Sequence record: SRR20825006_1103
Reading direction: 5' to 3' (one strand)
Length of the DNA stretch: 58,133 nt
The notes under the pieces are model-generated. The model did no database searches. It saw only the letters and a program-made list of their open reading frames with translations, and had not been told where the DNA came from. Position numbers and translations under genes: made by a program. Shown one piece after another: positions 24,793-56,982 of this stretch. The first letter of the stretch is position 1; each line of letters starts with the position of its first letter.

Positions 24793-24799
24793 CACGTTC

Positions 24800-24961: not shown

Positions 24962-25137
24962 CGTCGTTCGTCCGGAGGCCGGGAATAGTTCTCAGCGGGC
25001 GGGAAGGCTTCAAGCCTATCCTTTGTAACGACATCCGAACCCCTGGGCCTGGCCGTCCGCACCAATCACAAGGTGAGGCCAGATTGTCGTTATGAACTGC
25101 ATCCACCATTCGGGCGGCTGGGATGCGAGGAAAAGAT

Positions 25138-26985: not shown

Positions 26986-26994
26986 GACATCTCC

Positions 26995-32991: not shown

Positions 32992-33484
32992 GCGGAAGGC
33001 CGGCAGCGACAAAATCTACCTGATCGCAAACAGCAGCAACATTCTGGTTCAGCCGCCCCTGTGCATCCCGAAAAGCCCGTCCCAAAGATGTCTCCGGCAC
33101 CAACCCCAGGCCAATTTCATTAGAGACGAGTGCAATCTGCACCTGTGACGACTGGAGCGCAGTACAAAGCGCCATAGTTTCCTGCTCTATATCTCGATTG
33201 TGGTGGAATAGATTGGAGAGCCAGAGCGTCAGGCAATCTATGAGTACGGACTCACCCGGATTGATCTCCCCCTGAATCACGGACACCAGATCAAGCGGCG
33301 CTTCAATTGTTCGCCAGCCTTCACCGCGATCGGCCTGATGCCGTTTGATCCTGTCGGTCATTTCGGCATCGAGTGCCTCGGCGGTTGCCACGAACAAGCG
33401 GTGCGGCGAGGCGGTCTCTGCGAGAGCCTGCGCGCGGGCGCTTTTACCGGATCGTGCGCCCCCCAGAATGAGGAATTTCGTCAT
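32975..33484 (-). CDS. cobU: Bifunctional adenosylcobinamide kinase / cobinamide-phosphate guanylyltransferase (CobU/CobP)
   Basis: GGARSGKS, RIKRHQ, IDCLTLW, VSNEIGLG, FRD..GRLNQ and AGLP motifs. Confidence 0.96.
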   Translation of the reverse strand: MTKFLILGGARSGKSARAQALAETASPHRLFVATAEALDAEMTDRIKRHQADRGEGWRTIEAPLDLVSVIQGEINPGESVLIDCLTLWLSNLFHHNRDIEQETMALCTALQSSQVQIALVSNEIGLGLVPETSLGRAFRDAQGRLNQNVAAVCDQVDFVAAGLPLRLKG

Positions 33485-35963: not shown

Positions 35964-36472
35964 GGCACAATCACGATCCGCTTGTTCGCACGGAACACCA
36001 CCTCGTCTCCCTCAACATCAAAGACCTTGAACTGAGCGTCCCATCTACCAGCCGGTAAATCGGCAACACTCGTGACATAGTCACCTGAACCATGAGACTC
36101 GAGCACTACGACCTCGTCGTGCGTCGTACTGCCGGGATGGCGCAACTCGACAGATACCAAACGCGCCGAAATGGGCTCGCCAGCGGAGTCAGCCAGATTG
36201 AACACAAGATTTTCGTCATACAGGCCAGCCGCAGCGCTCCATCCGAGCAGGTCTTGCGAGGCCTTCGCGTCCAGCGTGCTGTTATAGTCCAAACCCTGCA
36301 GGTAGGACTTCTTCACATCCTCACCCGGAAAGCTGGTAATCGCATGATAGAGGAAAATACCGTTCACCGTGAACATGAGACCGAAGAAGCCCAGCATGAT
36401 CCAGAACACATGCCATCCGGTCAATTTTCCACTCTTGGAACTCGGGTCAGCGCTCAGCGCATGGTCTGTCAT
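35960..36472 (-). CDS. ccoH: CcoH/FixH assembly protein
   Basis: LTGWHV...FFG...VN...TSFPG...SY..GLDYN...LGW pattern, in cco operon position. Confidence 0.9.
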   Translation of the reverse strand: MTDHALSADPSSKSGKLTGWHVFWIMLGFFGLMFTVNGIFLYHAITSFPGEDVKKSYLQGLDYNSTLDAKASQDLLGWSAAAGLYDENLVFNLADSAGEPISARLVSVELRHPGSTTHDEVVVLESHGSGDYVTSVADLPAGRWDAQFKVFDVEGDEVVFRANKRIVIVP

Positions 36473-37941: not shown

Positions 37942-37949
37942 ACTGGCTC

Positions 37950-38834
37950 CTACTCGCCGCCGCCGAGCGAATGTACGTAAACGGCAATCGCCTTGATAGT
38001 TGCGTCATCCAATCGGTCGTCCCAAGCTGGCATGTGGGAATTGCGGGCATTGTAGATAGTGGCTTCGATGTCCGCCTCGCGATCACCATACAGCCACTCT
38101 GCATCCGTCAAATTTGGTGCCCCTTGGGTGCGATCCCCGGTCCCGTCCGCCCCATGACAAGTAGCGCATTGCTGCTGAAAGATTGGTGCGGCCCGCAATA
38201 CAGCTTCCGGATCATCACTGCGCCCTGACAGATCAAGAACGTACTGCGCAAGATCATCCACTTCGCTGCGCTTCAGCAGGCCATCTCGTCCAAATGCCGG
38301 CATCGCGGAAAAGCGGGTTCCATCATCGGTATCGTGACGGATACCGTGTCGGATCGTGTATTCGATACCGTCCAGGGAACCATCCCAAAGCCAAATGTCA
38401 TCTGCCAGCGCCGGATACCCAATGGCGCCGCGCCCACCTGCCCCATGGCAAGTTGCGCAATTGTCGCCGAAGGCACTTTCGCCCATGGCGAGCGCAAATT
38501 GCTGCAGGGTGCGGTCCGTCTCGATTGTCTCAAGGCCGGCATCGAGAAGGACGACGGATTGCGCATCCCGCGCTGTCTTGAGTTCCGTGACGGCCTTGGC
38601 GACCTCGGCCCGGTCCGAATGACCGCGCAGGCCCTTCGTATTGGTGCCAAGCCCCGGCAGGGCGGGAATGGCAGGCATCAGGATCATGTAGACGATCGCC
38701 CACGCGATCGACATGTACCAGACATACAGCCACCAGCGCGGCAGCGGATTGTTCAGTTCCTTGATCCCGTCCCAGGAATGTCCGGTCGTCTCAACGCCGG
38801 AATACTGGTCGATGTCCTTGGTTTCATCAGTCAT
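37950..38834 (-). CDS. ccoP: cbb3-type cytochrome c oxidase subunit III
   Basis: TGHSWDGIKELNNPLPRWW and two CATCH heme-c motifs. Start at MTDETK. Confidence 0.96.
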   Translation of the reverse strand: MTDETKDIDQYSGVETTGHSWDGIKELNNPLPRWWLYVWYMSIAWAIVYMILMPAIPALPGLGTNTKGLRGHSDRAEVAKAVTELKTARDAQSVVLLDAGLETIETDRTLQQFALAMGESAFGDNCATCHGAGGRGAIGYPALADDIWLWDGSLDGIEYTIRHGIRHDTDDGTRFSAMPAFGRDGLLKRSEVDDLAQYVLDLSGRSDDPEAVLRAAPIFQQQCATCHGADGTGDRTQGAPNLTDAEWLYGDREADIEATIYNARNSHMPAWDDRLDDATIKAIAVYVHSLGGGE

Positions 38835-38988
38835 TTGACGGCCCCTTGTCTTCAAGCGGAGAATTGGCGGCGCGGTCGAAAGTGTCCTGGTTGCTGGGCC
38901 ACAGAGCGTAGACAAGGGCCCCGGCAAACATCAAGACGAAATAGACCAGGCCACCGGTCTGGGCGAAACTTGAGAGTGCTTCATACAT
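38827..38988 (-). CDS. ccoQ: cbb3-type oxidase subunit CcoQ (53 aa, not in ORF track)
   Basis: Hand translation MYEALSSFAQTGGLVYFVLMFAGALVYALWPSNQDTFDRAANSPLEDKGPSND*, with GGAGG RBS, between ccoO and ccoP. Confidence 0.92.
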   Translation of the reverse strand: MYEALSSFAQTGGLVYFVLMFAGALVYALWPSNQDTFDRAANSPLEDKGPSND

Positions 38989-39000
38989 GCGGGTTGCCTC

Positions 39001-39771
39001 CTAGCGCCGGTTGCTGAGGTCATCAGCTTCATAGGTCGAGAAGTCGACGAGCGTGCCGGTCATCTGGAGATAGGCCACAATGGCATCCATCTCCGTGACG
39101 CGCCCAGGATCACCATCATAGTCGCGAAACTCAACGGAGCCCTCGCGCCCGGATGCGCCATCATATTGCTCAAGTAAGCTATCAAGGTGATCATATCCTT
39201 TTTCGTCTGGATCGGCCTGGGCGTAGAGATGGCCCTCGGCATTCTCGATCATTTCATCCGTATAGGGTACGCCAAGCATGCGCTCCGTACGCAGGCGCTC
39301 CGCGATACGGTCGAAGTTCAGCTTCTTGTCCGCCAGGAAGGCGTAAGGCGGCATGACGCTTTCCGGCACCAGAGCCCGTGGGTCCTTGAGGTGGTCGACC
39401 TGCCATTCCGCAGAATACTTGCCGCCGACACGGGCCAGGTCTGGTCCCGTGCGCTTGGAACCCCACTGGAACGGATGGTCGTACATGCTTTCCGCCGCCA
39501 GAGAGTAGTGGCCGTAACGTTCGACCTCGTCGCGCAGGGGCCGCACCATCTGACTGTGGCAGACATAGCAGCCCTCACGGACATAGATATCCCGGCCCAT
39601 AAGTTCGAGCGGGGTGTAGGGACGCATGCCGTCAACCTTCTCGATGGTGTTGTCCATATAGGCGAGGGGCGCCATCTGGATCAGGCCACCAATCGATACA
39701 ACGACAAGGATGCCGACGGTGAGCAGAAGCGAGTGCCGCTCCAGCAATCCATGTTTGTTCATGATGCTCAT
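39001..39771 (-). CDS. ccoO: cbb3-type cytochrome c oxidase subunit II
   Basis: [27 protein letters not shown] and SVMP motifs. Confidence 0.97.
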
Positions 39772-39781
39772 GGAGTCGCTC

Positions 39782-41467
39782 CTATTCAGCCGGAACCAGC
39801 GTCGTGCGTGGTTCGGGAGTTGCGTATGGGTCGGGCTTGGCCTCGACCGGCTCGGCAGCGCCATGGCCAAGTGCGGTACGCACAAGGTTGTAGGCCATGA
39901 TCAAGGCACCGCTGAAGTAAAGGCTGCCGCCCAGCGCACGGATCATGTAGCTGATGTGCTTGGCTTCGACGGTTTCCACGAAGCTGTATTCGAGGAAGCC
40001 ATACTCGTTATAGGCACGCCACATCAGGCCTTCCATGATTCCGGCAAACCACATGGAGATCATGTAGAACAGGATGCCGATCGTGGAGATCCAGAAGTGC
40101 CATTCGACAAGAGACTTCGAGAACAGAGCCTTCTTCTTGTAGAGCCACGGCACGAGGCAATAGAGCGCCCCGAAGCTGATATACCCAACCCAGCCGAGCG
40201 CCCCGGAGTGAACATGCCCGATTCCCCATTCCGTATAGTGACTGAGTGAGTTGACGGCACGCACTGACATAAGCGGACCTTCGAACGTCGCCATGCCGTA
40301 GAACGCCAACGACACGACCATCATGCGAACCACTGGATCCGTGCGCAGCTTATCCCAGGCACCAGACAGGGTCATGACGCCGTTGATCATGCCGCCCCAG
40401 CTGGGCATCCAGAGCATGATCGAGAAGGTCATCCCAAGCGTTTGCGCCCATTGGGGCAGCGCCGTGTAATGGAGGTGATGCGGCCCCGCCCAGATATAGA
40501 TGAAGATAAGGCTCCAGAAGTGAACAATGGACAGCCGGTAGGAATAGACTGGTCGATTCACTCGCTTCGGAATGAAATAATACATGATGGCGAGGAAGCC
40601 TGTGGTCAGGAAAAAGCCGACCGCATTGTGACCGTACCACCATTGCGTCATCGCATCCTGAACACCCGAAAATACCTGCACTGACTTTGTGCCCGTCAAT
40701 GAGACGGGAATGGACAAGTTGTTTACGATGTGAAGCATCGCGATGGTCACGATAAAGGAAAGGTAGAACCAGTTCGCCACATAGATATGCGGCTCTTTGC
40801 GCTTCCACAGCGTACCGAGGAACACGAGCAAGTAAGCAACCCACACAATCGTCAGCCACAGATCTACGTACCATTCAGGCTCTGCATACTCTTTCGACTG
40901 GGTCACCCCCATCAGGTAGCCAGTCGCCGCAAGCACAACGAATATCTGGTAGCCCCAAAAAACAAACCAGGGCCACATACCGCCCGCTATGCGCGTGCGG
41001 CAGGTGCGCTGGACGACATAAAAGCTTGTCGCTAGCAGCACGTTTCCACCAAAGGCGAAGATCACCGCGCTGGTATGCAACGGCCGCAATCGCCCAAAAT
41101 TCGTCCATCCCAGTTCAGGGAAGTAGAAGATGTTCGGGAAGGTCAGTTGAAGCGCGATAATGACGCCAACCAATAGTCCCGCAATACCCCAGAACATGGA
41201 CGCGAACACACCATATTTTACCAGCGTGTCTTCATAGCGCGACTCATCGAATGGATTGCGGTCGAGCAAATTGCCAGCCCACAAACCCGTGCCCACCAGA
41301 AACGCCGTGGCCAGCGCGATGAACGTCATCGCCTGGATGCCCATGGCGTGATCAATCGTGCGTCCTGCGATGATCAGGGCGAGCACCCCGAAGATCGCAA
41401 CCAGCGCGGAGACACTTGCGATACTCCCCCCGCTGGCATTCGATGAATTGGTTCGTGATGTCATCAT
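39782..41467 (-). CDS. ccoN: cbb3-type cytochrome c oxidase subunit I
   Basis: [34 protein letters not shown] and [10 protein letters not shown] motifs. Confidence 0.98.
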
Positions 41468-41544
41468 TCTGTTTAGCCCCTTCCGCAGAGCGTTGCGGTT
41501 GCGTCGTATGGGGCCTGATTACGGTGATCGCTTTGCGGCGCGTA

Positions 41545-41560
41545 TAGGGGCTTTCCCGTA
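41545..41560. promoter_or_regulatory. Candidate FixJ-type binding site between ccoN and the fixL operon
   Basis: TAGGGGCTTTCCCGTA, an imperfect 16-bp palindrome of form TAnG-N8-CnTA. Confidence 0.55.
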
Positions 41561-41615
41561 TGGGACAGTTCGTCCGCTTCTCTTAAACGAGGGCGGAAAT
41601 TGGAGGGTCTTGCCT

Positions 41616-41882
41616 GTGAAACGAATTCATTCTTATGCCATCGCCGCCGCGCTGGTGTTTGCGGGCATCACCAAGATGGTCTTGCAGGCTTCTGCGCAAT
41701 CCACGCTCATCCTGCCGACCTGTCTTGGAAAGTCTGTGACTATTCCGATTGAAAGCGCCGGCGCACAACTGACGCATTGCTGGGGATGCTACGTGCTTCT
41801 GCTCGGGCTGTTGGCTTTCGGTGCGCTCCTGTTGAACGACCTGCGGCATTCACGTCTCCGCACGAGGTCTGTTCTTTCCTAA
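41616..41882 (+). CDS. Small two-TM hypothetical protein with HCWGC motif
   Basis: GGAGGG RBS then GTG. 88 aa with N- and C-terminal hydrophobic segments, a lone Cys and an HCWGC motif. Confidence 0.6.
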   Translation: MKRIHSYAIAAALVFAGITKMVLQASAQSTLILPTCLGKSVTIPIESAGAQLTHCWGCYVLLLGLLAFGALLLNDLRHSRLRTRSVLS

Positions 41883-43076
41883 ATGCCCAGCCGCACCTAC
41901 AGTGCTGGGATCATGCCGAATCCCCTGTCTGACCTCTGGCGCTTGGAGAATACCGACTTTCAGGATTCGGATTCGCTCCAGTCGATTCTGAGATCCATCC
42001 TGCTGTCGGTCCCAGATGCCATGATCGTGATTGATGACACGGGAATCATCATGGCGTTCAGCCGGGCGGCCGAAAACTTGTTCGGCTACAAGTCGGAAGA
42101 TGTCGTTGGGACGAATATCAAATGCCTGATGACCCAATCTGACCAGACGCATCACGACCAATATATCCGCAACTACCTAACCACCGGAGAGCGCCAGATC
42201 ATTGGTATCGGTCGGATCGTTGAAGCGCGCCTCGCAAATGGCGATTCCATACCGGTGGAATTGAAGATTGGCGAAGCCAGTATCGGCGACCGCAAGCTGT
42301 TTACGGGGTTCATCCGTGATATCACCGAGAAACAGGCCAACATGCATCGTATCGGGGAGCTCCAGGCGGAACTCGGAAACTTCTCGCGGCTGAGCGCGGT
42401 CGGGACGATGGCCTCCGCCATGGCTCACGAACTCAATCAGCCGCTCACAGCCGTCGCAAACTATCTCGAAGCCGCACGTGACCTGCTGGATGAACCGAGC
42501 GAGAATGACCTGGCCATGGTTCAGGAAGCGGTGTCCGCCGCTGCAGAACAATCAATCCGGGCTGGCCAGATTGTTCGCCGGTTGCGCGATTACGTCTCAC
42601 GCGGGGAACTCGATCTCAGGCCCGCTCCCCTGAAGGGTGTGATTGACGACGCTGCGGCCATCGCCAAGGTCGGCATCGAAGGCCCCCTCGCCCGAGTAAT
42701 TCTTCGAATGGAAGATCCCGGGATCATTGTCATGGCGGACAGGCTCCAGTTGCGACAGGTGTTCGCCAATCTCATCAGGAATGCCATTGAGGCGCTTTCG
42801 GGAACAGAAACACCTCAGATCTGGATCTATACGCAGTCTTCCGGCGAGGAAGTGACGATCGAGGTCAAGGACAATGGCCCGGGGCTTTCAGAGGAGTTGC
42901 TCCATTCCCCATTTGATGCTTTTCAAACAACCAAAGCCAGTGGCATGGGGCTTGGCTTGTCGATTTGCCAAACCATAATCGAGGCGCATGGCAGCACGAT
43001 TGCGGTTTCGTCCGAACCTGGCGCTGGAGCATCGTTTACGTTTACTTTAAGAGTAGCCACGAACGTGGCAGGGTGA
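41883..43076 (+). CDS. fixL: Heme-PAS oxygen sensor histidine kinase FixL (soluble form)
   Basis: VPDAMIVID..G.I..FS.AAE.LFGY, proximal His (HDQYI..Y), FG loop IIGIGR, HELNQPL H-box, NLIRNA, DNGPG and GMGLGL. Start could be 41883 or 41913. Confidence 0.92.
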   Translation: MPSRTYSAGIMPNPLSDLWRLENTDFQDSDSLQSILRSILLSVPDAMIVIDDTGIIMAFSRAAENLFGYKSEDVVGTNIKCLMTQSDQTHHDQYIRNYLTTGERQIIGIGRIVEARLANGDSIPVELKIGEASIGDRKLFTGFIRDITEKQANMHRIGELQAELGNFSRLSAVGTMASAMAHELNQPLTAVANYLEAARDLLDEPSENDLAMVQEAVSAAAEQSIRAGQIVRRLRDYVSRGELDLRPAPLKGVIDDAAAIAKVGIEGPLARVILRMEDPGIIVMADRLQLRQVFANLIRNAIEALSGTETPQIWIYTQSSGEEVTIEVKDNGPGLSEELLHSPFDAFQTTKASGMGLGLSICQTIIEAHGSTIAVSSEPGAGASFTFTLRVATNVAG

Positions 43077-43083
43077 GCATGCG

Positions 43084-43704
43084 ATGACGAAGACCATTTT
43101 CCTCGTAGATGACGATGATGCCATCCGGCATTCCGCCAGCTTCATGCTGCGGCATGCCGGCTACACGGTGAAGACCTATCCGGATGGCGTGAGCTTCCTG
43201 GACGCATATGAGCCGAACGACTCCGCCTGCATACTTCTGGATGTTCGCATGCCTGTGATGGATGGCCTGACTGTACAGCAGGCCTTGTCCGAACGCGGCA
43301 ACAAGATGCCCATCATTGTGCTCACCGGGCATGGAGATGTATCGGTCGCCGTTCAGGCCATGAAGAATGGCGCCATCGAATTCCTGGAAAAACCTTATGA
43401 GAAAAAGGCTCTGCTTGAAGCCATCGAAACCGGTTTCAGCCGCATTTCCGACGACGAGGCCCAACAAGGGCTCAAGAATGAGGCGGTTGCGAAACTAACC
43501 CGACTAACGACCCGAGAATCCGAAGTGCTCGATTGCCTGGTTGAGGGCATGACCAACAAGGCCATCGCCGACGAATTGTCGATCTCCCCCCGAACGGTGG
43601 AAATTCACCGTGCAAACCTGATGGAAAAACTTGAAGCCGACAGTTTGTCTGCAGCGCTGCGCGTTGCATTCATGGCGGAACGAGGCCGCAAAGAGGCGCG
43701 CTAA
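43084..43704 (+). CDS. fixJ: Response regulator FixJ (REC + LuxR HTH)
   Basis: VDDD, LLDVRMP, LTGHGDV, FLEKP, LTTRESEV and ISPRTVEIHRANLMEKL motifs. Confidence 0.93.
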   Translation: MTKTIFLVDDDDAIRHSASFMLRHAGYTVKTYPDGVSFLDAYEPNDSACILLDVRMPVMDGLTVQQALSERGNKMPIIVLTGHGDVSVAVQAMKNGAIEFLEKPYEKKALLEAIETGFSRISDDEAQQGLKNEAVAKLTRLTTRESEVLDCLVEGMTNKAIADELSISPRTVEIHRANLMEKLEADSLSAALRVAFMAERGRKEAR

Positions 43705-43718
43705 GTAGGTCTACTTAG
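43701..43718. promoter_or_regulatory. Perfect palindrome upstream of the fixT-like gene (candidate FixJ box)
   Basis: CTAAGTAG-GT-CTACTTAG, with the same TAnG-N8-CnTA core as the site at 41545. Confidence 0.6.
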
Positions 43719-43778
43719 AGACGTCATACTCCTGCGATCATAGATGTGTGACTCCGAAACTATCGAGACCACGCCTAA

Positions 43779-44171
43779 ATGAATCAGTCCGTTTCACAGC
43801 CAGACCTGCTGAGGGTTGCACTTGTCGAGGATGATGAGGAGGTTCGCTACTCCCTCATGATGCTCCTGCGATCACGCGGGTTTGCCGTAGATTCCTATCG
43901 CAACGGCATGGAAATCCTGATGAACCAACCAAGTCTGCAAGTCGATTGCCTTTTGATCGATTACAAACTACCTCGGTTTGACGGTGTGGATCTTCTCGAG
44001 AAAATGAGGCTGGCTGGCGACACGACACCCGCAATCCTGATCACTGGCTTTTACTCCACAACGCTCAAGGAGCGCGCGCTCAAGGCTGGATATGCCGCTG
44101 TTGTCGAAAAGTCTTCCGCTCCTCAGGAAATCCTGGACCGATTGTCAGAGGCGACAAAGCAACTCCATTAG
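43779..44171 (+). CDS. Single-domain response regulator (FixT-like)
   Basis: VEDD, LIDYKLP, LITG and VEK receiver motifs with no output domain. Follows fixLJ. Confidence 0.8.
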   Translation: MNQSVSQPDLLRVALVEDDEEVRYSLMMLLRSRGFAVDSYRNGMEILMNQPSLQVDCLLIDYKLPRFDGVDLLEKMRLAGDTTPAILITGFYSTTLKERALKAGYAAVVEKSSAPQEILDRLSEATKQLH

Positions 44172-44194: not shown

Positions 44195-44521
44195 TTACTG
44201 GTCGTAGAATTTGCACAATGTCTCTATGACTGCCGTGCCAACACCTCCGGTCGAACGGTAGAATATCGCCTGACCGTCCCGTCGCGACGCAACCAGCCCC
44301 TCGGCCTTCAATTTCGACAAATGTTGCGACACGGCTGATAGCGATTGGTTCACTGCCTCGGCAATCTGGTTTACCGGCATTTCACCGTCAAACAACTCGC
44401 AGAGAATGCGCAGACGGGTCTCATTGGCCATCGCCCGCAGTGTCGCGCAAACTTCGGATACTTGATCCGACAGCGCATCAACTGAATCAGGATCGGGACG
44501 TGGATCGGCAGGCTCGCTCAT
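44195..44521 (-). CDS. ArsR-family repressor, SqrR/BigR-like
   Basis: RLRILC...SAVSQHLSKL..EGLV..RRDGQAIFY. Cys at 25, 41 and 103. Last gene of the rhodanese-MFP-RND operon (ATGA overlap). Confidence 0.85.
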   Translation of the reverse strand: MSEPADPRPDPDSVDALSDQVSEVCATLRAMANETRLRILCELFDGEMPVNQIAEAVNQSLSAVSQHLSKLKAEGLVASRRDGQAIFYRSTGGVGTAVIETLCKFYDQ

Positions 44522-47500
44522 GCCGTCTGACCTTCTGTGACAAGATCGTCATCGCCATCAGAAACCGCTGGCGCCACCCAATCTGGGCCCTTCAGCGCCA
44601 CATAGATCGCCGGAATCACGAGCACCGTCAGAGCCGTTGAAGAGGCAAGCCCGAAAAGGAGCGAAATTGCGAGTCCCTGAAAGATCGGATCTGTCAGAAT
44701 CACTGCCGCACCAATCATCGCCGCCAGCGCCGTCAACAGGATTGGCTTGAAGCGGATCGCGCCCGCATCCAGTAGAACTTCTTTCAATGGCTTGTCCGCA
44801 AATTGGCCATGCCGAACGAAATCGACCAGCAAGATCGAGTTTCGAACAATAATTCCGGCAAGGGCTATAAAGCCAATCATGGAGGTCGCCGTAAAGGCCG
44901 CGCCGAACAGCCAATGCCCGATCATGATGCCGATCAGAGTGAGCGGCACAGGTGTCAGGATAACGAGGGGTGTCCGGAACGTGCCAAACTGGGCGACCAC
45001 CAAAATGTATATGGCGACCAGAGCCACCCCAAACGCCACACCCATGTCACGGAAAGTGACATAGGTGATTTCCCACTCGCCGTCCCAAAGCAGGGAGGGC
45101 TTTGATTCATCAGATGGCTGACCATAGAGACGGATGGCAGGCTGCTCCAGCCCCGCACTTTTCCAATCATACGATTCCACCTGATCCTGAATTGCCAACA
45201 TCCCATAGATCGGCGCTTCGAACCGGCCAGCAAGCTCGCCCATGACCATGTCAGCGAAGTAGCCATCTCTCCGGAAAATCGTCGATGACCCCGCTTCCAT
45301 CCGGGCGTCCACGAGCGTGCCCAGTTCGACAGCTTGCGCGCCCGACTGTATGGGAACTGGCAAACTGGCCGTGCGCTCGGACCAGACCTGCGCAGATTTC
45401 GGTAGGCGGATCGATACGGAGAGTGGGTCACGTCCTTCGCCGCGGGGTGCCACGCCAACGATCTGGCCTGAATAGATCAACGCCAGCGAATCCAGTATAT
45501 CCTGCTCAGCGACGCCCTGATCAGCCGCAATCGTCTCATTCACGGAAAGGACGAGACGCGGTTGCGGTCCTCCGAAGGAATTGTCCACATCGACAATGTA
45601 CTCCGTGTCTCGGAACAATTGCTCAATCACATCGGCCGTCTTGCGCCGCGTTTCGGCATCCGGGCCGTATATCTCGGCCAGCAGTGTCGAAAGGACTGGC
45701 GGACCGGGCGGCACTTCCACCACTTTCACACTCGCCCCTTCGGGCAATGGCACGACATGCAACTGGTCCCGCAAAGCAAGAGCGATGTCATGGCTGGACC
45801 GGTCTCGATGACTCTTTTCCAGAAGATTGACCTGCAAATCCCCTAGTTCCGGTGCGGCGCGCAGGAAGTAGTGACGCACCAACCCATTGAAATTGAACGG
45901 CGCTGCTGTGCCAGCATAAGCCTGAACGGATTCAACTTCCTCTACATCGTACATCGTCGCGGCGAGGGCAAACAGGGTGCGTTCGGTCTCTTCCAATGTC
46001 GTGCCTTCCGGCATGTCCAGCACGATCTGAATTTCCGATTTGTTGTCAAAGGGCAGCAGCTTGACGGTAACAGCCTTGGTGGCAAATAAAGTAAGCGATG
46101 CGAGCGTCGCAACGCCGACAAGCCCCAAGAATATCCAGGCATTTTTCCGGCTCGCGACAATCGGTCCCGCAACAGATCGGTAGAAGCGACCCAAACGGGT
46201 CTCCTCATGCTCTGAGTGCCCACTGACAGGCGCCTTCCCGGCAATCTTCATCAGCAACCAAGGCGCGATTCCCACCGCGACGAAGAAAGAGAACAGCATG
46301 GCGGCCGATGCGTTTGCGGGAATAGGCGCCATGTAAGGGCCCATGAGCCCCGAGACGAACATCATGGGCAAGAGGGCCGCAATAACGGTCAGTGTGGCAA
46401 CAATGGTAGGATTTCCTACTTCCGATACCGCATCGATGGCGGCCTGAGCGCGTGGGCGACCGTCCTTCATCGCCCAATGCCGGGAGATATTTTCGATCAT
46501 GACGATCGCATCATCAACCAGAATGCCGATCGAGAAGATCAGCGCAAACAGGCTGACTCGATTGATCGTGTATCCCATCATCAGTGCCGCAAACAAGGTC
46601 AGCAGGATTGTGGTCGGGATGACAATGAGTGTCACCAAGGCTTCACGCCAACCAATGGAAAACGCGATCAGCACCACAATCGAAACGGTCGCCAGCCCCA
46701 GATGGAAGAGCAACTCATTCGCCTTGTGGTTTGCCGTTTCGCCATAATTGCGGGTCACAGCAATATGGACCCCTTCGGGTATCATTTCACGTTTCAATAG
46801 TTCAAGACGCTCGAGGATCTGATCCGCAACCACCACCGCGTTGGCGCCTGGCCGTTTCGCCAGGGAAAGCGTAACGGCAGGAAGTGATTCGAATTCCGCA
46901 CGCTCAGCATTCCGCTCCAGCGTCCAGGCTCGTGCCTCTGTCTCGATGCCGGCCACACGGACCCGCGCGACGTCGGAAAGATAAACCATGCGACCATCAG
47001 GAGCTTGAATTTCCAGCCGTTCGAGATCGCCCACAGCGGCGATCCGGTCGCCAGCCTGAATGATGATTGAGTCGCCAGAGCCGCGAGCCGTGCCAATGGG
47101 ACGCGCCTGAACGGCCTGTGCCGTCACATCGACCAACGCCTGAAGAGAGACGCCATAAGAAGACAGCGCCTCGATGTCGGGTTCAACGCGAAGCTCGAGA
47201 CTACGTCCCCCAATAACGTTAGTCAGGCCGACATCCTCCACCTTCAGGAGTTCTTTCAGAACCTCATCGGCGAGCATGCGCAGGCTGGTATCGTTCCAGA
47301 CATTTCCGGTCCACGTTTCCGGGGACAGCGTCAATGTAACGATGGGAACATCGTCAATGCCGCGCCCGACAACTTGCGGCATCTGAACTTCAGGTGGGAT
47401 GCGGTCGATATTGGCGCGAATCTTTTCGTGAATTCTCAGAATTGCGTCATCGGCATCAGTACCGACCATGAACCGCGCCGTGACGATAGCGCCGTCATCG

Positions 47501-47769
47501 CGGCTCTGACTGTAGACATGTTCGACGTCGGGAATCGCCTTGATGATTTCTTCCAGCGGCTCAGTGACCTGCTCGACCGTATCAGCCGCTCGCAGCCCGG
47601 GCGACTGAACCAGAATGTCCACCATCGGCACTGATATCTGCGGCTCTTCCTCGCGCGGTATAGTCAACAGGGCGATCAGACCAACAGCCAGCGCTGCCAG
47701 AAGGACCAGAGGCGTTAGCGGTGAACGGATCGTGGCTCGGGTGATGGAGCCGGAAACATCGGCCTTCAT
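44518..47769 (-). CDS. RND efflux transporter permease (AcrB family)
   Basis: 1083 aa. PREEEPQI, TM4 ILVDDAIVMIEN, TM10 IIVRNSILLVDF and TM11 RFKPILLT. Confidence 0.93.
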   Translation of the reverse strand: MKADVSGSITRATIRSPLTPLVLLAALAVGLIALLTIPREEEPQISVPMVDILVQSPGLRAADTVEQVTEPLEEIIKAIPDVEHVYSQSRDDGAIVTARFMVGTDADDAILRIHEKIRANIDRIPPEVQMPQVVGRGIDDVPIVTLTLSPETWTGNVWNDTSLRMLADEVLKELLKVEDVGLTNVIGGRSLELRVEPDIEALSSYGVSLQALVDVTAQAVQARPIGTARGSGDSIIIQAGDRIAAVGDLERLEIQAPDGRMVYLSDVARVRVAGIETEARAWTLERNAERAEFESLPAVTLSLAKRPGANAVVVADQILERLELLKREMIPEGVHIAVTRNYGETANHKANELLFHLGLATVSIVVLIAFSIGWREALVTLIVIPTTILLTLFAALMMGYTINRVSLFALIFSIGILVDDAIVMIENISRHWAMKDGRPRAQAAIDAVSEVGNPTIVATLTVIAALLPMMFVSGLMGPYMAPIPANASAAMLFSFFVAVGIAPWLLMKIAGKAPVSGHSEHEETRLGRFYRSVAGPIVASRKNAWIFLGLVGVATLASLTLFATKAVTVKLLPFDNKSEIQIVLDMPEGTTLEETERTLFALAATMYDVEEVESVQAYAGTAAPFNFNGLVRHYFLRAAPELGDLQVNLLEKSHRDRSSHDIALALRDQLHVVPLPEGASVKVVEVPPGPPVLSTLLAEIYGPDAETRRKTADVIEQLFRDTEYIVDVDNSFGGPQPRLVLSVNETIAADQGVAEQDILDSLALIYSGQIVGVAPRGEGRDPLSVSIRLPKSAQVWSERTASLPVPIQSGAQAVELGTLVDARMEAGSSTIFRRDGYFADMVMGELAGRFEAPIYGMLAIQDQVESYDWKSAGLEQPAIRLYGQPSDESKPSLLWDGEWEITYVTFRDMGVAFGVALVAIYILVVAQFGTFRTPLVILTPVPLTLIGIMIGHWLFGAAFTATSMIGFIALAGIIVRNSILLVDFVRHGQFADKPLKEVLLDAGAIRFKPILLTALAAMIGAAVILTDPIFQGLAISLLFGLASSTALTVLVIPAIYVALKGPDWVAPAVSDGDDDLVTEGQTA

Positions 47770-48755
47770 GAGTTCTCCGCTCCCGGCAATGTGACCACAT
47801 CGCCCGGTCTCAGTCCGGAGAGCACCTCAAAGACCCCATTGGAAACCAATGGCTCCGCCAGCACGACGGGGGCCTCAAAGAAGCGATCACCCACCTTTAC
47901 GCGCACAAAGTCTACTCCATAGCGCGTGGTGACGTATTCCTGTGGCAGAATGATCGCGCGGCGATCACCCACCGGGGCGAGCACATCGGCCCGTTCGCCC
48001 ACCAGCGCATTCAATCCGCCATCCACAACTGCGTCCGCGACCACTGCACCGTCTCGCAGCGCTGGATAAATCTTCTCAATGCGTGCTGTGCGCACGTCAT
48101 TGTCGCGCGCGGGCAGGCGTAACGAAACTTCTCCGCCTTCAGCCAGAAAGTTCAAATGCCGCTCCGGCAAGGACAATCGCACCAGCCCGTCGAGCGTCGC
48201 GAGGTTGGCAACGACCTGCCCCGGAGATACCACACTGCCTTCAACCACGAGTACATCTGTCACTCGTGAGTCAACTGGCGCGCGGACATACCCTTCCGCC
48301 CGACGGGCGATCAGACTGCGGCGTTCTTCCTCTGCGGAGGCTCGATTGGCCTTCACAACATCCAGAGCGGCCTTTTCCTGCTCGAACCGGGCTTTGGGAT
48401 AAAATCCATCTGCTAACAGTTTGCTCGCGCGGGCGAGGTCTTCTTCCTGTTGTGTCATTTGCGCCGTCAATCCATCGACGCGAGATTGGAGTGCATTGAT
48501 TTGCGGCGCTATCGTGTCGTCAGCCACGAAGGCGAGCACCTCACCAGCCTTGACCGTTTGGCCCTCATCGATGCTCAACTGTGTGATGACACCCTGAAGG
48601 CGAGACCGCGCCATAGCTGTATCACTCGCCTCAATACGCCCCACAACCGGACGAAAATCCGTGATGATGGACTCCTGAATGGTCAGTGTCTGCGCGGTGG
48701 CAGTCATGCTCAGCGCCAAGCCAACAATGAGACCACCGATATGTCGGGCGATCAT
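47766..48755 (-). CDS. RND periplasmic adaptor (membrane fusion protein)
   Basis: Signal peptide, lipoyl-like halves G.I..L.I.EGQ.VKAG and VRAP....V....V.EG..V.PG flanking a coiled coil. GGGAGA RBS. Confidence 0.88.
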   Translation of the reverse strand: MIARHIGGLIVGLALSMTATAQTLTIQESIITDFRPVVGRIEASDTAMARSRLQGVITQLSIDEGQTVKAGEVLAFVADDTIAPQINALQSRVDGLTAQMTQQEEDLARASKLLADGFYPKARFEQEKAALDVVKANRASAEEERRSLIARRAEGYVRAPVDSRVTDVLVVEGSVVSPGQVVANLATLDGLVRLSLPERHLNFLAEGGEVSLRLPARDNDVRTARIEKIYPALRDGAVVADAVVDGGLNALVGERADVLAPVGDRRAIILPQEYVTTRYGVDFVRVKVGDRFFEAPVVLAEPLVSNGVFEVLSGLRPGDVVTLPGAENS

Positions 48756-48756
48756 C

Positions 48757-49116
48757 TCAATAGTCTCCCTTGTCAACGATCGCACCCGTCGACGGGTCCA
48801 GCCGAATGCAGGGCTGCCCTGCCGACGTCCAGGCCGCGATGCCTCCCGCCAGATGAGCCGCGTCTGCGCCTGTTTCCTTCATGAAAGTGTTGAGCGCCAT
48901 TCTGGACCGTTTGCCAGATCCACACTGAAACACGATCCGCCTGCTTCCATCCGCAGGAATCGCTTTGGGTTCAAACGTGGATAAGGGGTGCAGCAATGCA
49001 CCATGAATGCGTTGGTTTGCGAATTCTGCAGGCTCGCGGACGTCGACCAATACGATCTTGCCAGCCTTGAGGTCTGTAAAGACACTTTGCGGTGTCAGGT
49101 CATATTTATCAGCCAT
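48757..49116 (-). CDS. Single-domain rhodanese (sulfurtransferase)
   Basis: LVDVREPAEF...IHGA, active-site loop CGSGKRS and LAGGIAAW. Confidence 0.9.
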   Translation of the reverse strand: MADKYDLTPQSVFTDLKAGKIVLVDVREPAEFANQRIHGALLHPLSTFEPKAIPADGSRRIVFQCGSGKRSRMALNTFMKETGADAAHLAGGIAAWTSAGQPCIRLDPSTGAIVDKGDY

Positions 49117-49163
49117 GATTTTTTCCTCTGCCAAGCCACCGGTCGCATTCGCGCAGTCGGTCT

Positions 49164-49177
49164 TTGATTTAGCTCAA
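49164..49177. promoter_or_regulatory. Fnr/FixK box in the rhodanese-sqr divergent promoter
   Basis: TTGATTTAGCTCAA fits TTGA-N6-TCAA exactly and TTGAT-N4-ATCAA with one mismatch. Confidence 0.7.
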
Positions 49178-49208
49178 TGCCATCGTGACCTATATAGGTA
49201 ATATTGCG

Positions 49209-49228
49209 TATTTGCGAAAGTGCTAATA
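49209..49228. promoter_or_regulatory. Candidate ArsR (SqrR/BigR) operator upstream of sqr
   Basis: TATTTGC-GAAAGT-GCTAATA, an AT-rich 7-6-7 inverted repeat with one mismatch. Confidence 0.45.
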
Positions 49229-49259
49229 TACAACATGTTTCCGGCAAGGAGGATTGGTT

Positions 49260-50537
49260 ATGGCGAACATTGTAATTCTCGGCGCGGGCCTAGGCGGATT
49301 GATCGCCGCCTACGAAATCAAAAAGACCCTCGGGCGGGACCATCAGGTTTCGATCATCAGCGAAACGGACTACTACCAGTTCCAACCTTCCAATCCCTGG
49401 GTGATGGTAGGCTGGCGGGATCGCAAGGACATCACGGTCGACTTGGCAAAACCCCTCCGCAAGCGAAACGTCAACTTGATTGTCGGCAGGGCAGAAAAAG
49501 TTGATCCCGCGAACAAATGCGTGCGTATGCCGGATGGGTCGCAGGTAGAATACGACTATCTGGTCATAGCCACGGGCCCCGAACTCGCCTTCGATGATGT
49601 CGAAGGCCTGGGCCCGAACGGCCACACTCAATCGGTCTGCCACATCGACCATGCCGAAGCAGGAGCCTCGGCCTTTGAGGCGTTTTGCAAGAATCCGGGC
49701 CCAATCGTGATTGGAGCGGCACAAGGGGCTTCCTGTTTCGGGCCAGCCTATGAAACCGCGATGATCATTGAGACCGAACTGCGCAAACGCAAGATTCGCG
49801 ATCAAGTGCCGATCACCTTTATCACCCCCGAACCCTATATCGGTCACCTCGGCCTCGATGGTGTGGGCGATACCAAAGGTCTGCTCGAAAGCGAGATGCG
49901 CAATCGCCATATCAAATGGATAACCAACGCCAGAGTTCTTGGCGCCGAAGCCGACATGGTACGTGTTGAGGAGTTGAACGAAGATGGCTCTGTCAAGCAA
50001 ACGCATGAACTGCCGACCCGGTACACTATGCTCATGCCACCTTTCAGGGGGGTCGAAGCCGTGCGTGATGTCGAGGGCTTGGTGAACCCCAAGGGTTTCG
50101 TGATTACGGACGACTTCCAGCGTAATCCAGAATGGCCGGATATCTTTGGTATCGGCGTCTGCATCGCGATTCCGCCCATGGGGAAAACGCCCGTGCCAGT
50201 TGGCGTACCCAAAACAGGCTTCATGATCGAATCCATGGTGGAAGCAACCGCCCGCAACATCGCGCAGCTTATCGAAGGAACCCAGCCAACACACAAGGCG
50301 AGCTGGAATGCGATCTGTCTCGCTGACTTCGGCGATGGCGGCGTGGCGTTCGTTGCGCAGCCCCAGATCCCCCCTCGCAATGTTAACTGGTCGGCTTCCG
50401 GGGGATGGGTACACTTGGCCAAGGCGGGATTCGAAAAGTATTTCCTACACAAGCTGCGTACAGGCCAGTCTGAAACCTTCTATGAAAATGCAGCGTTGGG
50501 TCTGCTGAAGACTCATAAATTGAAAGACCATTCCTGA
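49260..50537 (+). CDS. sqr: Sulfide:quinone oxidoreductase (type I / SqrA-like)
   Basis: GAGLGG and FQPSNPW motifs, three conserved Cys (SVCH, GASCFGPAYE, AICLADFG), PVGVPKTGFMIESM. AGGAGG RBS. Confidence 0.93.
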   Translation: MANIVILGAGLGGLIAAYEIKKTLGRDHQVSIISETDYYQFQPSNPWVMVGWRDRKDITVDLAKPLRKRNVNLIVGRAEKVDPANKCVRMPDGSQVEYDYLVIATGPELAFDDVEGLGPNGHTQSVCHIDHAEAGASAFEAFCKNPGPIVIGAAQGASCFGPAYETAMIIETELRKRKIRDQVPITFITPEPYIGHLGLDGVGDTKGLLESEMRNRHIKWITNARVLGAEADMVRVEELNEDGSVKQTHELPTRYTMLMPPFRGVEAVRDVEGLVNPKGFVITDDFQRNPEWPDIFGIGVCIAIPPMGKTPVPVGVPKTGFMIESMVEATARNIAQLIEGTQPTHKASWNAICLADFGDGGVAFVAQPQIPPRNVNWSASGGWVHLAKAGFEKYFLHKLRTGQSETFYENAALGLLKTHKLKDHS

Positions 50538-50989
50538 TGCCTGATCACCAGCATATTGTTTGCACCAAATGTGGCGCCGTAAATCGTGCGCCCATAGGGA
50601 GTAGCTTGGCGAGAGGCCATTGTGGATCGTGCAAGGGTGACCTTGCGAGCGATGCTCCCGTCGAGATCAACACGAAGATTCTCAACCGACTCATGTCCCG
50701 TGACGAAGGCAGTTTTCTCCTGGATGTATGGGCCCCTTGGTGTGGACCGTGTCGGATGATGGCGCCTTCATTTGCTGAGGCCGCAAAGCACTTTGATGGC
50801 AATCTTCGCTTCTTCAAACTCAACACGGAAGCCCATCCGGAAGGTGGAGCCGCTTTGAATGTTCGCGGCATTCCTGCCCTCCTGTTGTTCCAGGACGGCA
50901 GCGTGATTGATCAGCGGTCTGGTGTAATGACTGCGCCCACAATCATCCAGTGGGTGAATAGCCTGAATATTCTGAAAACCAGCGCCTGA
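50537..50989 (+). CDS. trxC: Thioredoxin 2 with N-terminal Zn site
   Basis: CTKC...CGSC zinc motifs and WAPWCGPC active site. TGATG coupling to sqr. Confidence 0.9.
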   Translation: MPDHQHIVCTKCGAVNRAPIGSSLARGHCGSCKGDLASDAPVEINTKILNRLMSRDEGSFLLDVWAPWCGPCRMMAPSFAEAAKHFDGNLRFFKLNTEAHPEGGAALNVRGIPALLLFQDGSVIDQRSGVMTAPTIIQWVNSLNILKTSA

Positions 50990-51014
50990 CAGTATCTGAC
51001 GAAAGGAAACAGAT

Positions 51015-51218
51015 ATGAATCTTGATCGTGCCGTACTCGCCTTTGCCGGATTGGTCGTTCTGATCAGCCTCGCATTGGGATACTGGGTATCCCCCTATTG
51101 GTTCCTGCTGACTGCTTTTGCGGGGCTTAACATGTTTCAGGCCGCCTTTACCGGTTTTTGTCCGGCTGCACTGGTCTTCAAGGCTATCGGCATACGGAGC
51201 GGCAACGCCTTCAAATAA
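51015..51218 (+). CDS. DUF2892 (YgaP-like membrane domain) protein
   Basis: DR.V..FAG...W.LLT.FAG.N.FQAAFTGFCPA signature. AAGGA RBS. Confidence 0.88.
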   Translation: MNLDRAVLAFAGLVVLISLALGYWVSPYWFLLTAFAGLNMFQAAFTGFCPAALVFKAIGIRSGNAFK

Positions 51219-55359: not shown

Positions 55360-56982
55360 CTAGCGCTCGACCGATATCCGCATCATGCCCAGCAATCCTC
55401 CAAGAACGATATCGCCGCCCGGCAGGAGGTGAATGACAGAGTAAGCGCCATTGTAAATGTGGCTATCACCAAGGCGAAGCCGTGTAACGGCTTCACCCGT
55501 CTCCCAATCAAGACCTGTGACCTCCCATTTTCCGTCTACGAAACCATTGACATAGACCTGTTGGGCGCCGCCAGAAATCATGGGGACGGTTGATGGGCTC
55601 GATACAGTGGGATTTGCCCAGGCACGCACCCAGCGGTCAGCTTCAACGTCCCATTCAAACTTTTCAGCACCCGTCGGTCCTTTGCGTAGTCTACCAGACA
55701 TGACAACATTCTCCAGCATTGTTGGCAATGGCGATGGCAATGTGTTGTTTACCACCAAGGCACCGTAGCCATATACCGCAACGGATTGCTCAGACTGGGC
55801 GCGCTCAAGGTCAGACTTTCCGAAACTAACCTGAATCTGGTCGGCAATTCGACGCGATTTGGTCCCTGGCTTCTGGACGAAATCCTCTGGAATATCGTCG
55901 CGCCAGAAGGCGACGACATTCATAATCAACTCTCCGTCCGTGATGACAACAAGTTTGTCTTCCTCGTCTCCGAAGCCCATAAGTGAGGGCGTAGAGCCTG
56001 ATCCGTTGCCGAGACTCACGCCGCCAAGTTTGCCGGTGAAGGAATCGTATTCTGATGACCACGCGCCATACCCTCTAGAGTGAAGTGTTTCCCCGTCCCA
56101 AACCAGTTTATGGAGCCTCCTATTTGAGAGAACATAAATGCCACCACCCTCATCAATGGCGATCGAGTTCGTAACCTGCTCATCGTCAGCCAACTCATGA
56201 ATGATCGGTGCCTGTTCAAAATTTCGGTCTACGATGACGACAACGCCGCCCATCGTCACCAGCGCCAGCATGCCATCATAAGTCAGATTCAATCCGAACA
56301 CAGCATCAGGGTCTTCCAGTGTTGGATTGAAATATTCGCGCGGCAGCTGAAAGCGGCGCTTTTCCACCAGTGGTGACAGCGGATTGCCGGGTTCGGCATC
56401 ACCATAAACGACGACATCGTTGTTGACGACAGTGTAGAAGTCACCATTGCGGTCGACGACATTATAGATTGCTGCTCTGGCGACGACCCGCTCAACATAA
56501 CGTGGATAGTTCCGATTGAGATAGCCAAGCAGTTCAGCTTCTGAGGCCGTACTATCCATTTCGACGGCGATACGTTCAGCATCCTCGACAGACATGAAGG
56601 GTTGACCTTCCACAGGCAGAGCATTGATCAGTTGAAACTTGCCATCGCTAATCAGGATTTTGGAGATACGATTATTGTTGGCGGAGATGGCCACCTGCTC
56701 ACCTGAAGGATAAGTTGGTAATTGCATAAGCGTGAGGTTCACCAACCCTGCCGGGACCCTTTGAATACCCTCATCATCAATCTCGTGAATACCGACCGGC
56801 CCAGCAAACGGAAGGGAATCCTGTTGAGCCGGATTAAAATGCGTGGTGGCAAGCTCGCTGTCCACCAGATTTGGGTTCATTGGAGGAAACTCCGGACCCG
56901 ACGCATCAAAGACTGGGATAGTGGAGCATGCACCAAGCACGGCTACGATTGCGACTGCAGCAGCAGCGATATGAGGTTTCAT
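55360..56982 (-). CDS. Uncharacterised lipoprotein (probable beta-propeller)
   Basis: 540-aa ORF with lipobox VLGAC, GGGAGA RBS, beta-rich repeats and a GSGSTPSLMG...VVITDG motif. Confidence 0.7.
   Translation of the reverse strand: MKPHIAAAAVAIVAVLGACSTIPVFDASGPEFPPMNPNLVDSELATTHFNPAQQDSLPFAGPVGIHEIDDEGIQRVPAGLVNLTLMQLPTYPSGEQVAISANNNRISKILISDGKFQLINALPVEGQPFMSVEDAERIAVEMDSTASEAELLGYLNRNYPRYVERVVARAAIYNVVDRNGDFYTVVNNDVVVYGDAEPGNPLSPLVEKRRFQLPREYFNPTLEDPDAVFGLNLTYDGMLALVTMGGVVVIVDRNFEQAPIIHELADDEQVTNSIAIDEGGGIYVLSNRRLHKLVWDGETLHSRGYGAWSSEYDSFTGKLGGVSLGNGSGSTPSLMGFGDEEDKLVVITDGELIMNVVAFWRDDIPEDFVQKPGTKSRRIADQIQVSFGKSDLERAQSEQSVAVYGYGALVVNNTLPSPLPTMLENVVMSGRLRKGPTGAEKFEWDVEADRWVRAWANPTVSSPSTVPMISGGAQQVYVNGFVDGKWEVTGLDWETGEAVTRLRLGDSHIYNGAYSVIHLLPGGDIVLGGLLGMMRISVER

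Follow-up and report, generated by a model that had tools for sequence, protein, structure and literature searches.

Gene Content and Organization of the Locus

The stretch of DNA analyzed here (58,133 nt of the sequence record SRR20825006_1103, hereafter the window) carries at positions 44195–51218 a cluster of seven genes, in which a resistance-nodulation-division (RND) efflux permease is encoded together with enzymes of sulfide metabolism. The genes form two divergent, tightly packed operons: rhodanese, membrane fusion protein (MFP), RND permease and ArsR regulator on the minus strand, and type I sulfide:quinone oxidoreductase (SQR), thioredoxin TrxC and a DUF2892 protein on the plus strand. 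The locus represents a true and conserved module of the sulfide response, to which an RND subfamily is dedicated. The seven genes, their operon order and the shared 143-bp promoter, as claimed in an initial annotation of the stretch, were all located by open reading frame (ORF) analysis and Pfam/NCBIfam scans.

The pump operon begins with a gene for a single-domain rhodanese of 119 aa (48757–49116, minus strand; PF00581, 50 bits). Its likely start is the ATG at 49116, preceded by GAGGAAAA; the protein possesses the active-site loop CGSGKRS and no signal peptide. The following gene (47766–48785, minus strand) encodes an MFP periplasmic adaptor of at most 339 aa (TIGR01730, 120 bits, cut-off 95), which also matches the CusB/HlyD barrel-sandwich family PF16576 (55 bits). 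Next come the RND permease of 1083 aa (44518–47769, minus strand; PF00873, 462 bits) and, as the last gene of the operon, the ArsR/SmtB regulator (44195–44521, minus strand). The MFP and RND genes overlap by 4 nt, as do the RND and regulator genes.

The opposite operon starts with sqr (49260–50537, plus strand), whose ATG lies behind the sequence AAGGAGG. The encoded protein of 425 aa matches the solved SQR of Acidithiobacillus ferrooxidans (3sz0/3t2z) with 470 bits over residues 2–423 and that of Aquifex (3hyv) with 363 bits. In the alignment with the solved enzyme, the cysteine motifs (SVCHIDHAE, GASCFGPAYE and AICLADFGD in the window protein) coincide, and an FAD motif, IVILGAGLGG, is found at the N-terminus; these features identify the protein as a type I SQR. 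The sqr gene overlaps by 1 nt with a gene (50537–50989, plus strand) encoding a thioredoxin of 150 aa (PF00085, 80 bits). On the TrxC model NF008229 it scores 115 bits, just below the cut-off of 125, and its motifs CTKC and CGSC in an N-terminal zinc-finger extension, followed by the WCGPC active site, mark it as a TrxC-type protein (thioredoxin-2). The last gene, located 25 nt downstream (51015–51218, plus strand), encodes a two-helix membrane protein of 67 aa belonging to the DUF2892/YgaP-TM family (PF11127, 43 bits, cut-off 25).

The solved relative of the DUF2892 protein is the transmembrane domain of Escherichia coli YgaP (2mpn, 26 bits), and the solved relatives of the rhodanese include the YgaP rhodanese domain (34 bits), so that the two proteins together look like a split YgaP. 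The ygaV–ygaP pair of E. coli likewise combines a SqrR/BigR-like regulator with a rhodanese and a DUF2892 membrane domain; however, the two domains are fused there and no SQR or pump is present, whereas in the window they are encoded by separate genes in opposite operons. A cysteine of the DUF2892 protein, within the motif TGFCP, is shared by 90% or more of the 85 sequences compared; E. coli YgaP has serine at this position.

The operons are separated by 143 bp (49117–49259), counted between starts lying behind good ribosome-binding sites. An AT-rich element at approximately 49190–49230 in this shared promoter region includes the palindrome ATAGGTAATATTGCGTAT (49194–49211) and represents a candidate operator. 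An AT-rich block containing TTGCGTAT and resembling that of the window, judged by eye only, lies upstream of sqr in relatives; inverted-repeat counts across 19 relatives revealed no single palindrome common to all of them as an operator. Contigs of four seawater metatranscriptome runs from four studies span both operons. Their pieces end at 49160–49172 on the pump side and begin at 49227–49262 on the sqr side, and none of those listed covers 49173–49226. This break is at most a weak hint at two divergent starts flanking the AT-rich block and could be an assembly gap in an AT-rich stretch; the contigs tell neither level nor strand.

The Pump Belongs to a Separate RND Subfamily

The permease falls far below the cut-offs of the curated NCBIfam multidrug (HAE1) models, scoring best on NF033617 (383 bits, cut-off 1250), followed by NF000282 (316 bits, cut-off 1250) and TIGR00915 (254 bits, cut-off 940). 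On the CusA/CzcA model TIGR00914 it reaches 249 bits with a cut-off of 701, and the closest solved pumps match it with 220 bits at most. The nearest genome, G001, served as a stand-in for the window's own (38% of sampled 31-mers in common, 99% complete). It contains an orthologue of the pump that is 98% identical, and its other seven RND loci show no more than 29% identity over the best matched segments, the best-scoring paralogue having 27% identity and 213 bits. In a FastTree phylogeny of 79 permeases (73 subfamily members and six G001 paralogues), the split between the subfamily and the paralogues has a support of 100; the method being quick and the paralogue branches long, the coarse picture alone is trustworthy. 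The pump forms its own RND clade, apart from drug and metal pumps, and a grouping with either of these, which the initial annotation had held to be incompatible with its proposal of sulfur export, was not observed.

The motifs GILVDDAIV, IIVRNSILL and IRFKPILLT are all present in the pump, so the Asp-Asp, Arg and Thr of the proton relay, together with the arginine of VRNS, had been read correctly. These residues are nearly invariant in the subfamily: D419 is found in 117 of 117 sequences, D420 in 116 of 117, R976 in 112 of 112 and T1013 in 112 of 112. The R976 column, which we take to correspond to Lys940 of AcrB, is occupied by K, N, G or E in the G001 paralogues, and its invariant arginine can therefore be regarded as a subfamily signature.

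The pump carries Asp-Asp in transmembrane helix 4 (TM4), whereas two of the RND paralogues of G001 have the Asp-Gly pair of the metal-pump type. Its periplasmic part contains no invariant methionine or cysteine and only one invariant histidine. Taken together, these features argue against a metal site like that of CusA/CzcA. Two further candidate adaptations were rejected: the complete lack of cysteine in the pump protein is unremarkable, as the paralogues also carry just 0–3 cysteines, and no charge or metal-site signature sets the periplasmic domain apart from those of the paralogues.

Among well-known systems, AcrAB-TolC and MexAB-OprM share with the window pump the full-length ACR_tran fold, the Asp-Asp/Arg/Thr relay, an adjacent adaptor and, in some relatives of the pump, an outer-membrane factor (OMF) encoded in the cluster. 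The window pump differs from them by an identity of only about 25%, scores below every curated subfamily cut-off, sulfur-gene partners, the invariant arginine in place of the lysine of AcrB-like paralogues and a short adaptor (339 aa).

Conserved Gene Linkage Across Genomes

Relatives of the locus were collected with a profile built from 12 homologues, one genome being taken per species; the 80 best of 558 confirmed loci were retained. They originate from Hyphomonadaceae, Caulobacterales, Sphingomonadales, Bradyrhizobium, Rhizobiaceae, Hyphomicrobium and others, with pumps 56–83% identical to that of the window. About a quarter are from Bradyrhizobium, and the rows are not independent. Genes were counted within 6 kb of the RND gene, and the counts are lower bounds, since the upstream sequence is shorter than 6 kb in thirteen of the 80 loci.

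Within this distance, MFP was found in 79 of the 80 loci, DUF2892 and a two-Cys ArsR in 68 each, sqr in 57, thioredoxin in 31 and rhodanese in 26, in 29 different gene orders. As sqr and DUF2892 are roughly single-copy genes, chance proximity would occur at a rate well under 1%; the predicted co-occurrence of the pump with these two genes is thus borne out. The only locus possessing sqr without DUF2892 lies at a contig edge, and DUF2892 is more tightly tied to the pump than sqr is.

Other genes join the cluster less regularly. The sqr operon carries an OMF gene immediately downstream of DUF2892 in 11 of the 80 loci, among them the closest relatives (Henriciella and two Hyphomonadaceae); in the window, only the permease and adaptor of a putative tripartite system are present. 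A CMD/AhpD-like protein of 119 aa (PF02627, 84 bits), absent from the window, is encoded near the cluster in 25 loci, its gene sitting right after RND or near DUF2892 in L038, L040, L043, L045, L047, L049, L059 and others (around 13220–13580). It seems to be an alternative thiol-redox accessory.

A wider sample of 401 evenly drawn Pseudomonadota genomes contained a match to the pump in 174 cases at a threshold of E ≤ 1e-150. For 40 of the matches at greater distance, whose pumps are 36–46% identical to that of the window, the surrounding 19 kb were inspected: DUF2892 and/or sqr lie beside the pump in 17 of them, only rhodanese, thioredoxin and ArsR in one, and none of these genes in 22. In the FastTree phylogeny (79 rows), linked loci sit in all deep clades of the subfamily. 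Sixteen unlinked loci (L140–L149, L152, L154, L156, L170, L178 and L179) fall into one derived clade, whose open frames of 1210–1341 aa result from a C-terminal extension and in which the adaptor is present, followed by ORFs without a Pfam match, and no sulfur gene is recognizable. The simplest reading is that the link to DUF2892 and sqr would be ancestral, having been lost once in the derived clade and sporadically elsewhere. These comparisons support the pump as a dedicated part of a sulfide/persulfide module, syntenic across Alphaproteobacteria and in more distant Pseudomonadota.

A Two-Cysteine ArsR Regulator

The regulator of the cluster (108 aa) has the ArsR/SmtB winged helix-turn-helix fold (PF01022, 55 bits, cut-off 22; NF033788, 85 bits, cut-off 55). 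Its solved relatives are HlyU (63 bits), SqrR (52), YgaV (45) and BigR (40), and it scores 55 bits on the BigR equivalog model, which has a cut-off of 155. The protein is predicted to be an ArsR/SmtB repressor of the SqrR/BigR/HlyU/YgaV kind. The sensing cysteines of SqrR, BigR and HlyU presumably lie in helix 2 and the C-terminal helix, 66 residues apart; the residue numbers are taken in part from published descriptions (PMC10044876, PMC12423496).

Cys41 of the window regulator aligns with the sensing cysteine of HlyU and SqrR. The second cysteine, Cys103, follows at a spacing of 62 and is located four residues, or one helical turn, before the SqrR position. Among 80 aligned cluster regulators, Cys41 is present in 78, the second cysteine occupies the window-type position in 29 and the SqrR-type position in 49, and the two positions are mutually exclusive. 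Judging by this alignment, the displacement is a family trait and no accident; it looks like a lineage-specific shift of sensor geometry.

The tight in vitro operator of SqrR, ATTC-N8-GAAT, derives from the promoter denoted 'rcc1451' in the published work. The eight loci with MFP and RND only were searched for this box: three have it upstream of MFP, two elsewhere and three not at all. The box is perfect and just upstream of the MFP gene, with no sqr nearby, in L102, L103 (Gemmobacter) and L107 (Paenirhodobacter), three Rhodobacterales-type loci in which it matches the published 'rcc1451' operator. A paper on a Pseudomonas putida 'SqrR' deals with a sigma-54 regulator and with MexEF, an unrelated pump, and hence was set aside.

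Sulfur-Oxidation and Export Genes in the Window and the Nearest Genome

The initial annotation had stated that the cluster lacks persulfide dioxygenase (PDO) and transporters of the TauE and YeeE/YedE types, and this held for the whole window: none of the PDO, YeeE/YedE, TauE and OEP (outer-membrane factor) families was detected among the 52 ORFs scanned. The suggested genome-wide search for pdo, yeeE and tolC-type genes was carried out in G001. The YeeE/YedE family has no match there, and neither SoxZ nor the sulfite oxidase molybdenum domain was found in this genome. No PDO was recognized among its 11 metallo-beta-lactamase (MBL)-fold genes, nine of which were scanned, two long frames (683 and 590 aa) being left out; a type II PDO query gave nothing above 42 bits. 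Three of the MBL-fold proteins considered as PDO candidates turned out to be a YcbL-like glyoxalase II (L018; 2xf4, 246 bits), GloB (L019) and a LACTB2-like protein (L022).

G001 possesses three TauE genes, all away from the cluster, and the DUF2892 gene of the cluster is its only copy. Eight OMF genes are present, none of them near the cluster; three lie away from any RND gene, consistent with the earlier suggestion that the OMF is encoded elsewhere. The G001 protein closest to the OMF of the Henriciella cluster shares 32% identity with it.

Relation to Published Systems

A survey of two-Cys ArsR proteins marks a group of regulators encoded beside RND transporters, which includes Rhodobacter capsulatus SqrR as well as proteins from Hyphomicrobium, Rhodomicrobium, Rhodopila, Rhodoplanes, Erythrobacter, Halorhodospira and Acidithiobacillus thiooxidans; its supplementary Table 1 links R. 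capsulatus sqrR to an RND transporter, and RND pumps are listed among the regulator targets shown or likely to transport sulfur compounds (PMC12423496). The association of ArsR with RND is therefore already in print.

In R. capsulatus, sqr, the rhodanese gene rcc01557 and trxC are up more than 10–20-fold upon sulfide exposure or SqrR loss, and TrxC, by binding SqrR and reducing the polysulfide bridge of the repressor, switches the response off (PMC10044876, PMC9995734). This repressor reset is a published role of TrxC other than feeding a pump (PMC10044876). Common to the SqrR regulon and the window are an ArsR-type persulfide sensor with two cysteines, a type I SQR, TrxC, a rhodanese consisting of one domain and, beside the regulator, an RND transporter. 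Its genes (sqr, rcc00785; rhodanese, rcc01557; trxC, rcc02517) are scattered, whereas the window gathers such a set in one divergent cluster, to which DUF2892 is added. Further differences are the second cysteine of the regulator, four residues earlier in the window, a window promoter without ATTC-N8-GAAT, and the PDO-type enzymes that R. capsulatus has and that were not found for the window species, judged by G001. By analogy, the cluster may be viewed as a compact equivalent of the SqrR regulon.

An experimental parallel by gene kinds is the operon Dsui_3440–3443 of Azospira suillum PS, encoding DUF2892, RND, SQR and MFP, whose RNA rises from log2 values of about 1–4 to 8–11 with sulfide (PMC5358917, supplementary files 6 and 8). 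Barcode sequencing (BarSeq) in the same study gave mean fitness values without stress, at 1 mM H2S and after an H2S spike of −0.76, −2.21 and −2.69 for RND, −0.81, −2.12 and −2.63 for MFP, −0.75, −0.86 and −1.17 for SQR, and −0.08, −0.15 and −0.33 for DUF2892 (PMC5358917). This operon combines four gene kinds that the window cluster also has, is strongly induced by sulfide and shows a sulfide-specific fitness defect in RND and MFP mutants. It comes from a different class, has SQR between the pump genes, with no ArsR, thioredoxin or rhodanese reported for it, and its authors favor export of metal sulfides or a stress function.

BigR–blh–pmpAB clusters of Xylella and Agrobacterium and the canonical sqr–pdo clusters of heterotrophs resemble the window in combining a persulfide-sensing repressor, detoxification enzymes and a membrane transporter (PMC12423496). 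They use PDO together with YeeE/TauE-type transporters, whereas the window cluster has neither and encodes an RND system instead. Full-text searches of the published literature retrieved no substrate shown for such a pump and no proposal that it is a sulfur exporter. The mechanism moving zero-valent sulfur out of the cell was still termed unknown for Chlorobaculum in 2025 (PMC12285230).

Proposed Mechanism and Alternatives

We tentatively propose that the cluster is a self-contained sulfide/persulfide response module, in which the MFP–RND pair might export sulfide-derived zero-valent (sulfane) sulfur, and rate this reading as plausible while falling somewhat short of probable. In the proposed sequence of events, the two-Cys ArsR would occupy the 143-bp promoter of both operons until its cysteines become linked by sulfane sulfur, and the release of the repressor would switch both operons on. 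At the membrane, the type I SQR would transfer electrons from sulfide to quinone and thereby form zero-valent sulfur as polysulfide or S8. Rhodanese and TrxC would handle the sulfane sulfur that reaches cytoplasmic thiols, and TrxC would also re-reduce the repressor, turning the system off. The MFP–RND pair, working with an OMF that is encoded elsewhere here and in the operon in some relatives, would expel hydrophobic or polyanionic zero-valent sulfur from the membrane and periplasm. The small Cys-bearing membrane protein DUF2892 would probably act as a pump accessory or sulfur relay. Because no PDO, Sox or sulfite oxidase genes were found in the nearest genome, the pump may be the main sulfur disposal route of the organism.

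RND pumps collect their substrates from the periplasm or the outer leaflet of the membrane and are poor candidates for transporting small hydrophilic cytoplasmic anions. This mode of uptake, together with synteny and the lack of downstream oxidation enzymes, is what suggests the pump substrate and the role of DUF2892. The regulator chemistry, SQR catalysis and TrxC reset are modeled on the R. capsulatus experiments and homology, and the sulfide-specific need for the pump on the Azospira data. A bolder version, in which the RND subfamily and the Cys-bearing DUF2892 protein would constitute the missing machine that moves polysulfide or S8 from the membrane and periplasm across the outer membrane, appears rather doubtful to us.

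The export proposal of the initial annotation survived in part. The pump is dedicated to a sulfide/persulfide module by synteny and has its own clade, but the claim that it is present 'instead of' PDO was overstated, and the ArsR–RND link had been printed before. No PDO was recognized in the window or G001, yet a type II PDO is encoded near the pump–sqr cluster in seven of the 80 loci (L108, at 5949–6878, L100, L072, L044, L067, L097 and L092; 387 bits to 4ysk), which means that the pump does not simply replace PDO and both can coexist.

Besides this coexistence, several observations weigh against sulfur export. DUF2892 stands beside the pump without sqr in 12 of the 80 loci, and MFP–RND has no sulfur gene nearby in eight. 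The periplasmic domain of the pump is net negative, as in the paralogues, and shows no clear signature of anion binding. No SqrR box, be it ATTC-N8-GAAT or the variant ATTC-N8-ATAT, was found within 200 nt upstream of the window sqr, even with one mismatch allowed, and the second regulator cysteine is displaced by a helical turn from its SqrR position. G001 encodes a stand-alone DUF442/Blh-N-terminal-like protein (L180; PF04273, 109 bits; G001:C1:293050–295477), two genes from the LACTB2-like MBL-fold protein mentioned above (L022), which has a winged-helix tail, and the two could be an unrecognized persulfide-handling pair. The species, judged by its nearest genome, appears to have SQR and no known enzyme oxidizing its product further, in a search that did not extend to sHdr, rDsr and SoeABC.

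The Azospira data also cut the other way. Perchlorate-dependent sulfide oxidation proceeded at the same rate after deletion of the entire operon, and the authors read the pumps as exporting metal sulfides or serving general stress export (PMC5358917). Hardly any defect is seen in the SQR mutant, in contrast to the impaired pump mutants, so that the task of the pump is independent of SQR there. Since perchlorate respiration makes periplasmic S0, the greater weight of the pump would fit removal of sulfur species however formed; this pattern fits the rival readings equally well. Membership of the Azospira pump in the window subfamily is likely on the basis of the four-gene composition and not of sequence, a gap in the argument for export.

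The first of the rivals sees in the pump a general exporter for envelope stress or hydrophobic toxicants, which shares no more than its regulation with sulfide oxidation and has no specific role for the SQR product; its substrates might be environmental organic polysulfides, quinone adducts or damaged lipids. Such a function would accord with the usually broad substrate range of RND pumps, the eight loci with MFP–RND and no sulfur gene nearby, the complete loss of linkage in the derived 16-row clade, and the greater importance of the pump than of SQR in Azospira. However, the linkage with DUF2892, a persulfide-type regulator and sqr persists through 29 gene orders and at pump identities as low as 36%, which is hard to explain without a shared task. 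In addition, the gene layout in 11 loci suggests that the OMF is co-transcribed with sqr and DUF2892, and the Azospira fitness defect is sulfide-specific when compared with the no-stress control. We consider a general pump unlikely.

Alternatively, the pump may be sulfide-induced and yet expel thiophilic metal ions, or metal–sulfide complexes formed in the envelope, in place of sulfur. This is the interpretation of the Azospira authors, who observed iron-starvation and metal-transport responses under sulfide (PMC5358917). The match of the adaptor to the CusB/HlyD family (PF16576, 55 bits) and the family of the regulator, rich in metal sensors, point in the same direction, and a CDF cation-efflux gene adjoins the pump in four loci. 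The permease itself contradicts this view by its score on the CusA/CzcA model, far below the cut-off, by Asp-Asp in TM4, where two G001 paralogues have Asp-Gly, and by a periplasmic part with no invariant Met or Cys and a single invariant His. The regulator, moreover, has a persulfide-type cysteine pair and no metal site, and the conserved neighbors are sulfur-handling genes, not metal genes. Metal export is, in our estimate, quite improbable.

Least convincing is the export of sulfite or thiosulfate made from SQR sulfur via rhodanese, with the pump replacing a TauE-type exporter. In its favor, transporters for sulfite or thiosulfate do accompany sulfur oxidation in BigR- and CstR-type clusters (PMC12423496), the pump operon starts with a rhodanese gene and the PC1 region has four invariant basic residues (R632, R637, R655 and R667). 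However, the searches for PDO, Sox and sulfite oxidase found no sulfite-making enzyme in the window or G001, G001 already has three TauE genes elsewhere, rhodanese occurs in just 26 of the 80 loci and the uptake route of RND pumps is ill-suited to such small anions, so that we regard it as very unlikely.

Export of sulfane sulfur would bear on an unsolved problem in sulfide oxidizers, the removal of insoluble zero-valent sulfur from the cell envelope. The pump subfamily is widespread, and its linked members, whose neighboring genes encode SQR, a persulfide sensor and a small membrane protein with a cysteine, offer a concrete and genetically testable candidate. If true, the proposal would explain extracellular sulfur deposition by SQR bacteria and sulfur disposal in heterotrophs without PDO, and would add a third route of sulfide detoxification in heterotrophs to PDO-based oxidation and YeeE/TauE transporters. 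The pump would also be the first of the RND type with an inorganic sulfur substrate, widening the known RND chemistry, and the presence of the locus in seawater metatranscriptomes of four studies would give it a bearing on marine sulfur cycling. If not true, the cluster would still be of use as a compact model for the SqrR regulon, its sensor having a variant geometry.

Other Genes of the Window

The cluster is directly adjoined by a region (33720–44171) containing the cbb3 oxidase genes ccoNOQP, the fixGHIS assembly genes, a copper P-type ATPase, FixL, FixJ and a lone receiver. A FixG-like gene lies near the cluster in seven other loci, and FixLJ homologues are found in L053 and L087. This neighborhood may link sulfide handling to microaerobic respiration.

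Further away, the region 21751–33484 is an ordinary cluster of cobalamin salvage and late biosynthesis (cobT, cobS, cobC-like, cobO, cobQ, cobD and cobU), which also holds a TonB-dependent receptor and a FecCD-type ABC importer. Two ORFs on the minus strand, of 540 aa (55360–56982) and 370 aa (20379–21491), have no Pfam match at E ≤ 1e-6. A possible defense-type gene (17139–18095, minus strand), located between a thioesterase gene and ychF, encodes a protein of 318 aa with an N-terminal TIR domain (PF13676, 37 bits).

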